A stretch of 64,000 nucleotides of DNA from a virus (taxonomy: Duplodnaviria > Caudoviricetes). A model generated the notes under the pieces. The model was not told where the DNA came from. It saw only the letters and a list, made by a program, of their open reading frames with translations, and did not search any database. The translations under genes and the position numbers were made by a program. Location: the IMG/VR virus record IMGVR_UViG_3300011774_000001, positions 96,001-160,000 of that record; one strand, given 5' to 3'. Each line of letters starts with the position of its first letter. Within the stretch, counting starts at the first letter, position 1. Shown in pieces: positions 36,599 through 57,080 of the stretch.

Positions 36599-37048
36599 AT
36601 GTCCACCTATGAACGTTATCGCCCATCCCTGGCCCGACATATGCTGGAAGGTTATTTGGATTGGTACGCGACGCTACCCGATGCGGAGAAATGCTACCTC
36701 ATCGTAGACCCTGTGGTTTGGGATGACATGCCCGAGCCTCTCAAGAAGTTTATTGGGCCGGCCGGTTTGCTGTTGGACATCAGCCCACAAGCCGTTGTCA
36801 ACTTCGTGATTGGCGACGAGTACCTGAGTTTCAATGCTCGCTTCAGTGGGCAAGAAACTCAACTGGATATTCCGTGGCCAGTGATTCATTCGGTGTACAC
36901 AATCACCCGTGACCAACAACCCATCTCGCAACTCGGATTCGGTGGGTATACCCCTCATGAATTCCGCACCATCGAAACACCAAAACCCGAAGAACAACCA
37001 GTTGCGCAATCCGCTGACAAGAAACCAGCCCTGCGCGTTGTCAAATAA
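36599..37048 (+). CDS. sspB: ClpXP adaptor SspB homolog
   Basis: ISPQAVVNF...LSFNARFSG core; C-terminal ClpX-binding motif PALRVVK. Confidence 0.88.
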   Translation: MSTYERYRPSLARHMLEGYLDWYATLPDAEKCYLIVDPVVWDDMPEPLKKFIGPAGLLLDISPQAVVNFVIGDEYLSFNARFSGQETQLDIPWPVIHSVYTITRDQQPISQLGFGGYTPHEFRTIETPKPEEQPVAQSADKKPALRVVK

Positions 37049-54422: not shown

Positions 54423-55520
54423 GTGAATCAATACGAATATCTTCAGCTCATGCTGGGGGCCAAGTATCAGTTGGAGAAGGACGATCTTCTACTGATCACG
54501 GCAATCGCAACGGTTCTGCGTGGTCGCAACATTGAGGTGACCTTTGCGTCGGCTCCATTGTTCGGTCAACTGAACGGTGAAGAAGGGCACAGTGAACGCC
54601 ACCAGCTTTACAAGGTGGTGACTCAGGGCATGGCGTACTGGGAACTGACTCAGGCGCTGGGCGGTGTGGACAACAAGTATCGCGCTGCCAGCTACCTGCG
54701 TGAGATCATGAACGGTCGTGGCGGTACCCCAAGCATCCGTAAGGTTGCCATGGTGCTGGTTAGCGAGTGGGAAGTGCCTGCTCCTCCACCTGTGTCTGCA
54801 GAAGACATGGCCGGCACTGACCGTCAGGATGAAGCTCGTCCTGCACACGATGGCTGGCTTGCCACTGGCAAGTACAAGGTTGAAGGCGAGGAAGGTGAAA
54901 AGACCTACGACCTGGACGCCAAGAACGGCGAAGACGGCGAGCCTGCCGTGGTCACCATCGCTCGTCTGATTCGTGCGTCGTGGGACCCTGTGCTCAATCA
55001 GGTTGATCCTGTCCGTCTGGAAAAGGTCAGCCTCATGTTGGGTCATGTTCTGATGGGTGAGCGTCAGCAAATGATCGCTCAGCTGGAAGAAGCGAAGAAA
55101 GCGGCCAAGCCAGAACCGGTCAGCATCTGGCCGAAGAACAAAGAACACTGGATCTTCGATGCGCGTTACTCGGCCCTGCAAGCGCCGTGGGCTCTGAACA
55201 AAGACTACCCTTGCCGTCAGGCGATCGAAGACGTTGTTCGTAGCGCAGCACGCTTTGCGGTGTCTCGTGCCAGTGGCATGGGTAACAGTCGTGTGTTCAA
55301 CATTGAAGGCTTTGTCGAAAACGTTGTCCTCGGCCTGTTTGGCGATGGTACCAACGAAAAAGACTTCGACTTCAGCAAACTGGTGTTCCGTGAAAAGACA
55401 CCAGCAGCGGAGGCGGCAGGTACCACCATCCACTTTGAAGCACCGCTGGAAGCAGCCGCCACGCCGGCACCTGCTGCAGAACCTGCAGGGGGCGAAAGCG
55501 AGGCTGAAGTGGGAAAGTAA
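54423..55520 (+). CDS. hypothetical protein ending at a -1 slippery site
   Basis: Ends GTG GGA AAG TAA. Confidence 0.8.
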   Translation: MNQYEYLQLMLGAKYQLEKDDLLLITAIATVLRGRNIEVTFASAPLFGQLNGEEGHSERHQLYKVVTQGMAYWELTQALGGVDNKYRAASYLREIMNGRGGTPSIRKVAMVLVSEWEVPAPPPVSAEDMAGTDRQDEARPAHDGWLATGKYKVEGEEGEKTYDLDAKNGEDGEPAVVTIARLIRASWDPVLNQVDPVRLEKVSLMLGHVLMGERQQMIAQLEEAKKAAKPEPVSIWPKNKEHWIFDARYSALQAPWALNKDYPCRQAIEDVVRSAARFAVSRASGMGNSRVFNIEGFVENVVLGLFGDGTNEKDFDFSKLVFREKTPAAEAAGTTIHFEAPLEAAATPAPAAEPAGGESEAEVGK

Positions 55521-55744
55521 GTGCTGAGGTAGCCAGTAAGGTATCTGCAGCATCCAACTTCCCTCAGGCTCCAGTAGAAACAGCAGAAGAAACCATTCTG
55601 CCAGTCAGTGAACGTGGGGCACCTGCCAGTACGCCATTGATTGAAAAGCTGCAAGCCCAAAAGACTGCGGCTAAACCCGTAGCCAAGAAGCCAGCAGCAA
55701 AACCTGCAGCAAAATCGCGCACCGCGCGCAAACCTACCAAGTAA
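55511..55744 (+). other. programmed -1 frameshift site and 75-aa extension with AlgP/histone-like KPAA tail
   Basis: G_GGA_AAG heptamer; hairpin 55521-55553; ATG-less open -1 frame. Confidence 0.7.
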
Positions 55745-55751
55745 CACATCT

Positions 55752-55783
55752 GGCTCACTCCCGGTCGGGGGTGGGCCTTATGC
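55752..55783 (+). terminator. hairpin + TTATGCC
   Basis: GGCTCACTCCC-GGTC-GGGGGTGGGCC-TTATGCC, right after the extension's stop. Confidence 0.7.
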
Positions 55784-55799
55784 CATCGGAGAGAAACAC

Positions 55800-57080
55800 A
55801 TGAATTCTACTCGTCACAAAATCGCAGCTGGTGTTTACCTGACCCAACTCATGTTGCGTTGTCAGATCAGCGACATGGCGCACACCTTGAACGTTGCCGA
55901 CGAGGCTTCGTTCCGCAAAGAAGTCTTCCATGGTGACGCCCAAGACCAGAACAGAACTCTGGCCGCCCAATGCTGGTCCACAGTGCGGGCGATCGCTTTG
56001 GGTCATCGTGGTTTCCTGCAGGCCCTGCGCTTGCACGAAGACCTCTTTACCCCAGGCGTGCTGGCGACACTTACTCGCCACCTGCTCAACGACCCTGATG
56101 TCGATTGGAATGACGTGGGCTGTTTCCTGGCTGGCACGGCTGAGCAGTTCAAGTTGGATATCTTGCTTAACAACCACTTGGAGCGCCCCATCTCGCAGCA
56201 GACAGGGAGTGCTGTTCGCGAGGTGTTGGAGCAGGCTGCAAACATCTTTGACAATGCTCGGACCTATAACGAGACCTTTGTCAAGTCTTCTGTGTTCCGC
56301 TATGCTGATCTATGGACTCGGATGTTCCACAATCCGCGGGAGCTGATGCGTGCCCTGGACGAGGTGGGTATCAAGCAGGGTCCTGATGATTCCGAAGACG
56401 TCAATGCAGTGGCCAACATCATGGGTGGTGAACCTGATGGTGTGTTCGAGGCTTTCTGTATTCGTCACAGCCTGGGGTTGGAATCTGCCAAGGCCTGGGA
56501 AGAGCAGATGGTCACTTGGGGCTACCGCGAATATGCGGGGGCCACTCGCGGCATGATGGCTGATGGTCGTGCTGAATTCAAGACATTCATGGCCAGTGCC
56601 GTTGCTGCCGGCTATCCTGTCTACATTCAGGACAAGCACCTGTCTGACTTTGAAGACTTGTTGATCAAGATCCCTGGCGCCACCACCGACGAAGAACGGG
56701 ACATGGTGGAAAACCTAATCCACTGCATCGCACCGATCCTGTACTTTGAACTGTGTGAACATGGCGTGCGTCGCTCTGCTCGCTGGCGTGGTATTCGCCT
56801 GTCCTCCTACTACGAAGAAATGATCGATGAGCTGGAGAACTATGAGGGTTCTGGTTGGCTGCCATTGGTTCGTCTGGAAACCATGCGCTTCGCCAATCGT
56901 CGCTTTGATCGGCAAACCATCTTCACCCCGTATGAAGAAGAAGCCTTGAAGCAGATCGAGAAAGCCAAACTGTTGGCCAGCAAACCTCAAGCAACCTTCC
57001 GTCACACCTACCTGGTTCAGGAACTGCTGCGCGTCATTGAAGACGACTTCTATCACCTGAACTTCTTCGGCCACAACTAA
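55800..57080 (+). CDS. hypothetical protein, paralog of 52766..53800
   Basis: 426-aa ORF, SD GGAG. Confidence 0.75.
   Translation: MNSTRHKIAAGVYLTQLMLRCQISDMAHTLNVADEASFRKEVFHGDAQDQNRTLAAQCWSTVRAIALGHRGFLQALRLHEDLFTPGVLATLTRHLLNDPDVDWNDVGCFLAGTAEQFKLDILLNNHLERPISQQTGSAVREVLEQAANIFDNARTYNETFVKSSVFRYADLWTRMFHNPRELMRALDEVGIKQGPDDSEDVNAVANIMGGEPDGVFEAFCIRHSLGLESAKAWEEQMVTWGYREYAGATRGMMADGRAEFKTFMASAVAAGYPVYIQDKHLSDFEDLLIKIPGATTDEERDMVENLIHCIAPILYFELCEHGVRRSARWRGIRLSSYYEEMIDELENYEGSGWLPLVRLETMRFANRRFDRQTIFTPYEEEALKQIEKAKLLASKPQATFRHTYLVQELLRVIEDDFYHLNFFGHN

Follow-up and report, generated by a model that had tools for sequence, protein, structure and literature searches.

A probable -1 ribosomal frameshift that makes an ancestral protein tail conditional in a chimallin-encoding jumbo phage

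A gene of an uncultured jumbo phage probably undergoes -1 programmed ribosomal frameshifting (probability about 0.88), in which slippage at the heptamer G_GGA_AAG would yield two isoforms of one protein. Scarcely less probable, on the sequences of its homologs, is the fuller reading that the frameshift also gates an ancestral C-terminal tail, what that tail might bind being left aside. The gene lies in a window, by which we mean the whole analysed stretch of 64,000 nucleotides (positions 96,001 to 160,000 of IMG/VR record IMGVR_UViG_3300011774_000001). An earlier note on this DNA, made from the letters alone, had proposed a lambda-type -1 frameshift with two isoforms. The end of the ORF, the heptamer at 55511-55517, the TGA at 55505, the lack of an ATG and the 75 open codons with their peptide are all as it described them, and the proposal itself is supported by a conserved heptamer, a coding -1 frame and the lack of a start codon of that frame's own. 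The features of the locus, in window coordinates, are as follows.

54423..55520, + strand: 0-frame ORF, 365 aa, 40.1 kDa, pI 5.06, with a helical core and a disordered end
55131..55355, + strand: small helical-hairpin module, core residues 237-311, found alone or fused in unrelated proteins
55500..55503, + strand: GAGG, candidate Shine-Dalgarno (SD)-like element by the criteria of PMC4066793
55505..55507, + strand: TGA closing the -1 frame, one codon 5' of the heptamer and within the invariant block
55511..55517, + strand: slippery heptamer G_GGA_AAG, Gly-Lys in both frames, from the sequence and its relatives
55518..55520, + strand: 0-frame stop directly 3' of the heptamer, TAA here and TAG in the L001 and L004 types
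55517..55744, + strand: -1 frame extension, 75 codons and TAA, predicted to give a long isoform of 440 aa, 47.8 kDa, pI 5.65
55521..55553, + strand: 3' hairpin, -13.7 kcal/mol, from folding
55598..55654, + strand: conserved motif LPVxERGAPAxTxLIxxLQ, in frame in homolog P0005
55661..55741, + strand: basic patch, the last 27 residues, net +10 with two exact KPAA, from composition
55752..55784, + strand: hairpin and TTATGCC end-of-gene element, 33 nt past the -1 stop

The slippery site and its conservation

The 365-codon ORF at 54423-55520 ends, as read directly from the sequence, in the codons GTG GGA AAG TAA. We propose that most ribosomes would decode Gly-Lys and stop at 55518 to release the 365-aa acidic protein, and that a minority, slowed by the adjacent stop and presumably by the 3' hairpin, would slip one base back at G_GGA_AAG, with tRNA-Gly moving from GGA to GGG and tRNA-Lys from AAG to AAA. 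The slipped ribosomes would read 75 more codons to give a 440-aa form with a short motif and a basic patch at its end. The slippage rate may lie between a few and some tens of percent; lambda shifts about 4% of the time at GGGAAAG (PMC3296357). G_GGA_AAG ranks in the top three -1 motifs for efficiency in E. coli (PMC4066793), because a single tRNA-Lys reads both AAA and AAG (PMC5009743); this is an E. coli value, and the tRNA-Lys set of the phage host may differ, the phage itself having no tRNAs. Since the -1 frame is closed by the TGA at 55505-55507, the shift would be confined to the heptamer.

The relatives used to follow the site were taken from different samples, assembled independently (JGI, ENA and Logan), and fall into three sequence types: the window with L017 and L018 (stop TAA), L001-L003 (stop TAG; 92-95% protein identity) and L004, L013 and L019 (stop TAG; 60% protein identity). 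The heptamer and the adjacent stop are invariant in the three types, whose proteins are 60-95% identical, and 11 of 11 close proteins end in AEVGK. The upstream GAGG lies 8 nt 5' of the second base of the heptamer in two types, a spacing that fits the SD-like criteria of PMC4066793, and is missing in the L004 type. The 17 nt at 55503-55519 are common to all three types and the DNA on either side diverges; this block alone is weak evidence, since the window and L004 share many exact runs of at least 15 nt (49 in 9 kb, only two of them inside the gene). L001 is about 98% identical to the window across most of the locus, so only two deep lineages carry the site. The earlier note had named a sequencing indel as what would undo its reading, and the same junction in three types from independent assemblies excludes it; the conservation that it had proposed as a check, of the heptamer together with an open -1 frame, is found in the close homologs of all three types.

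The heptamer is also scarce in this genome. GGGAAAG has three copies on both strands, compared with 8-27 expected from Markov models, and it is missing from the 0 frame of all 173 long ORFs counted, where about 3 copies are expected. GGA is a rare codon (6% of the Gly codons in the genome), and chance would give about 0.015 genes per 300 that end in the heptamer. A genome-wide scan found seven other sites near ORF ends with a heptamer and an open frame, none of which combines an adjacent stop, a closed upstream frame and the lack of a start.

The -1 frame extension and the nearby hairpins

The -1 frame is open from 55517 to 55741, is followed by TAA at 55742-55744 and contains no ATG or GTG. 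An open frame of 75 codons arises by chance in 4% of shuffles. The frame is open for 75, 79 and 80 codons in the three types, lengths that differ by whole codons. Between the window and L004, the codon changes within the 41-codon core of the tail are 10 synonymous to 4 non-synonymous when read in the -1 frame; the corresponding counts for the other two frames are 0/12 and 1/12. Synonymous divergence between the same two sequences is close in the tail (19/53) and in the main gene (83/201), which argues against a recently shared patch. Codon-usage scoring of the tail rated the +1 frame as highly as the -1 frame. The gene callers overlooked the extension in every close relative with gene calls examined. 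A separate observation in the tail core is a 34-nt exact match to L004 (55596-55629), third positions included, which may reflect a local exchange or an element acting at the RNA or DNA level.

The extension is uneven in charge: its first 45 residues are net -3 and its last 27 are net +10, and the long isoform as a whole is still acidic (net -7, pI 5.65). Its best-conserved part is the non-basic stretch LPVxERGAPAxTxLI. Exact KPAA repeats number one or two, with two in the window, and no other such basic patch occurs in the six frames of the genome. The earlier note's description of the tail as AlgP- or histone-like holds for its composition, including the two KPAA units, and is overstated for the extension as a whole, given its acidic first 45 residues and the isoform's pI.

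The hairpin that had been placed at 55521-55553 folds as claimed, and it is modest, with z scores of -2.8, -1.9 and -0.3 in windows of 40, 50 and 60 nt and with 54% of the gene's own 55-nt windows as stable. It is the weakest of the three types; the hairpins at the equivalent place reach -22.0 kcal/mol (L001 type) and -23.6 kcal/mol (L004 type), in the top 3% and top 1% of the windows of their own genes, and their sequences are unrelated. The segment directly 3' of the 0-frame stop is the most divergent part, yet a hairpin folds there in every type. The three hairpins share no register, which points to replacement and shows no covariation; the gated clade has rebuilt its hairpin in different sequence.

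Beyond the -1 stop, where a terminator had been claimed, a real and strong stem is present (55752-55777; z -2.8). It is followed by TTATGCC with no U-tract, and the terminator scan made no call at it. The genome contains 21 such hairpin and TTATGCC elements (for example at window 38427, 55778 and 61089), most of them about 30-55 nt past a stop codon, and half of the TTATGCC copies in the genome belong to them. From its sequence and placement, the element is probably an end-of-gene element of the phage, either a terminator or a transcript boundary. The interval from the chimallin stop to its own hairpin and TTATGCC element (G000 175728-175944, about 215 nt) has no long ORF and several apparent stem-loops.

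It is very unlikely that the tail is what is left of a truncated gene, no longer functional and open only by chance or through RNA-level constraint, with the heptamer incidental. The 34-nt exact run could be such an RNA or DNA element, or a recent exchange, and codon usage did not single out the -1 frame, but the synonymous bias is specific to that frame, the indels are of whole codons only, and the tail has diverged at synonymous sites about as far as the main gene. Even less credible is a separate small gene begun at TTG 55637 or by re-initiation, a start that the earlier note had itself held up against its frameshift. This TTG is in frame and would yield a 35-residue basic peptide; it is CTG in L017, L018, L013 and L019, where the tail frame lacks any ATG, GTG or TTG, no SD sequence precedes it in the window, and conservation reaches 5' of it. 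The remaining sources of a long form or of an apparent one, namely transcriptional slippage, stop read-through and a sequencing error at the site, are together highly improbable. The phage's own RNA polymerases may have their own slippage rules, but the site has no homopolymer longer than 3; read-through would run only 3-11 codons to the next stop, and the +1 frame only 2 codons here; and the junction recurs unchanged across the JGI, ENA and Logan assemblies, which stem from different samples.

The core protein, its homologs and the origin of the tail

The source, judged by its sequence, is an uncultured nucleus-forming, chimallin-encoding jumbo phage of 231 kb, represented by a single contig of 230,984 bases with 53.9% G+C. 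Chimallin is encoded at G000 173638-175728 and matches PhuN/chimallin structures (E 7e-35 to 2e-22), the terminase is of the phiKZ type and 39-43% identical to jumbo-phage terminases of Xanthomonas, Erwinia and Pseudomonas, and the genome encodes its own multisubunit RNA polymerases. The Pfam tubulin family PF00091 has no match in the whole genome, where a diverged PhuZ could still be present. An SspB-like gene (PHROG 8945, E 9e-10) at window 36599-37048 ends in LRVVK. Around the frameshift gene the gene order is conserved, and the neighbours are an NAD-dependent ligase and otherwise unannotated genes. The next gene (55800-57080) is a swapped allele with about 50% nucleotide identity to L001, unlike the other L001 neighbours, which are about 98% identical to the window; an additional 73-aa gene is present there in L001, and a 149-157-aa gene in L005, L022 and L024.

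The core of the 365-aa protein, about residues 1-322, is predicted to fold into several domains, mostly helical, and includes a long helix at 196-228, and the last 43 residues, modelled at low confidence, are acidic, Pro/Ala-rich and disordered. This core is without a known family or fold match, and none of its features links it to nucleic acids. Neither core nor tail has a Pfam, PHROG or PDB sequence match, and the gene, its homolog P0028 and the 344-aa neighbour have no match among 50,697 isolated phage records. Neither the whole model (pLDDT 72, pTM 0.36) nor the C-terminal module (pLDDT 85) rose above background in fold searches: the best Z was 4.7 and 5.2, no Foldseek E fell below 0.001, and Atlas TM values did not exceed 0.41. 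The Atlas feature matches to the protein were generic helical proteins only and were set aside. No likeness to a gpG-type chaperone, in sequence or fold, was detected in Pfam, PHROG, PDB or fold searches of the 365-aa protein. Its homodimer prediction gave no verdict (0.38, with the mark at 0.42) and counts neither for nor against a dimer. The module of about 75 residues (55131-55355; P0027-P0037) occurs solo, duplicated, or joined to a MazG-like or other domain, with a match in Shewanella phage vB_Sb_QDWS and a weak one in Xanthomonas phage LucasX. A faint likeness of the tail motif to a helix of this module was rejected at a profile-comparison probability of 0.2%.

A profile search brought in 13 more distant full-length homologs, none of them frameshifting. 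The in-frame end is a net-positive Lys/Arg/Pro/Ala stretch in 11 of the 13, and tails are very short in P0023 and P0025. The in-frame ends of P0005 and P0026 are acidic, so the basic tail is not essential to the family. The DNA was examined for six homologs (L005, L007, L009, L020, L022 and L024), and no slippery site of such kind occurs in their last 150 codons. In these six the hairpin and TTATGC element lies 34-41 nt past the ordinary stop; in the frameshift clade it lies 33-34 nt past the -1 stop and 257 nt past the 0-frame stop. In addition, the 0-frame stops of L007 and L009 pair with the -1 stop in the alignment, position by position and flanks included. The in-frame basic tails and the aligned stops together indicate that the frameshift gates an ancestral tail and adds no new one. 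The earlier note had taken the tail for an addition, and these results replace that view with an ancestral C-terminus made conditional. The tail motif is in frame in the acidic-ended P0005 (39% identical; E 2e-6 among the 13 homologs), and LPVxERGAPAxTxLIxxLQ is not found in the other 12. In a midpoint-rooted tree, in which P0005 has no firm placement, a 100/99 branch sets the three frameshift proteins apart from the in-frame homologs. The simplest reading of these sequences is that the frameshift cassette was gained once, in the ancestor of a small clade, and it would have turned a constitutive ancestral C-terminus into a sub-stoichiometric tail.

As to purpose, two further readings, both compatible with slippage at the heptamer, differ from ours. 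The frameshift may be compensatory, an old indel having severed the tail and slippage rescuing it, with the long form doing the work and the short form a by-product. This reading, which concerns purpose and not mechanism, agrees with the match of the -1 product to the ancestral full-length architecture and with corrective frameshifting as a recognised class (PMC5009743). We consider it unlikely, because the short form retains the whole folded core, a simple reversion would restore the frame and yet the site has persisted over 41% synonymous divergence, the heptamer is optimal and its hairpins were replaced, and homologs with short tails (P0023, P0025) or acidic ends (P0005, P0026) exist. About as doubtful is that the frameshift rations the non-basic motif LPVxERGAPAxTxLIxxLQ as a protein-binding or targeting signal, with the basic patch secondary. 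No part of the extension is better conserved than this motif, which also stands in frame in an acidic-ended homolog, but the motif has no known partner and is absent from the 12 other homologs in a set where basic ends prevail (11 of 13).

Known systems and the possible purpose of the tail

The site resembles that of lambda gpG/gpGT (PMC3296357, PMC5009743) in its GGGAAAG, in Gly-Lys in both frames and in a short product accompanied by a longer fusion. Unlike lambda G/GT, the gene is not between tail tube and tape measure genes: its neighbours are the unannotated genes and the ligase, and a 2314-aa tail protein, which has a transglycosylase domain, lies about 82 kb from it, in line with the earlier note's placement of the gene outside the tail-chaperone and tape-measure context. 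The extension also differs from that of gpGT in being a low-complexity 75-aa tail with no second domain; it has no Pfam match, and the control L012 scores Big_1 at 7e-16. The capsid and tail extensions made by frameshift, among them those of T3, T7 gene 10 and Lactobacillus phage A2 and the Ig-like domains (PMC5009743), are similar in that a minority of copies gain a C-terminal extension. Here, however, the core cannot be recognised as a capsid or tail protein, and the extension, which is not Ig-like, appears to be the gene's own ancestral end with no incoming out-of-frame domain. Given the different gene context and the lack of an Ig domain, the gene is a member of neither the lambda G/GT nor the capsid-extension family.

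The 17 nt recur unchanged at a locus of an unrelated 50-kb phage contig, L012 (1455-2692, - strand): there a Gp13-like major capsid gene has the same five end residues and stop, and is followed by a hairpin (z -3 to -4) and a -1 frame of 96 codons that encodes a Big_1 Ig-like domain. This locus matches the capsid-extension frameshift (PMC5009743) and thus presents the same stop-after-heptamer layout in a classic setting. The 17 nt common to L012 and the window could reflect convergence on a favourable context or transfer. By analogy, the closest system in logic is the reversed dnaX arrangement of some bacteria (PMC5009743), in which a stop also lies directly past the site, the long form is made by a -1 shift and the same region is in frame in relatives; dnaX differs in being an unrelated protein with a different heptamer and a chromosomal, not a phage, gene.

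The end of the extension is Lys/Pro/Ala-rich, with KPAA, KPVA and KTAA units, like the tails of Pseudomonas AlgP and PhaF and of histone H1 (PMC9239181, PMC12818456). AlgP carries 25 perfect KPAA repeats in 154 residues, and PhaF carries 22 (PMC9239181, PMC12818456), whereas the patch here has 2 exact repeats in 27 residues and the core is not homologous. The long tandem KPAA arrays of those reports (9-25 repeats; PMC9239181, PMC12818456) are absent from this tail, which is therefore a short patch of like composition and not an AlgP-type domain. Because binding to DNA or RNA and association with polyphosphate are on record for KPAA tails (PMC9239181, PMC12818456), polyanion binding is a reasonable guess for the patch. 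By this analogy we tentatively suggest, at a little under even odds, that the basic patch would hold some copies of the protein on a polyanion, DNA or RNA, with the frameshift setting the ratio of tethered to free copies.

A more specific and rather doubtful extension of this proposal is that the frameshift acts as a dial on the polycationic-tether copies of a conserved protein of nucleus-forming phages, dividing it between a nucleic-acid-bound pool (e.g. at or within the phage nucleus or capsid) and a free pool, and that the in-frame, acidic-ended and gated alleles record the birth of the recoding site. No study in the literature that could be searched, which is incomplete, connects ribosomal frameshifting with phages that encode chimallin. 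With its in-frame basic, in-frame acidic and heptamer-gated tails, the family is one of the rare cases that show the states before and after a recoding site arose, and a familiar recoding mechanism seems here to have been built anew into an old gene.
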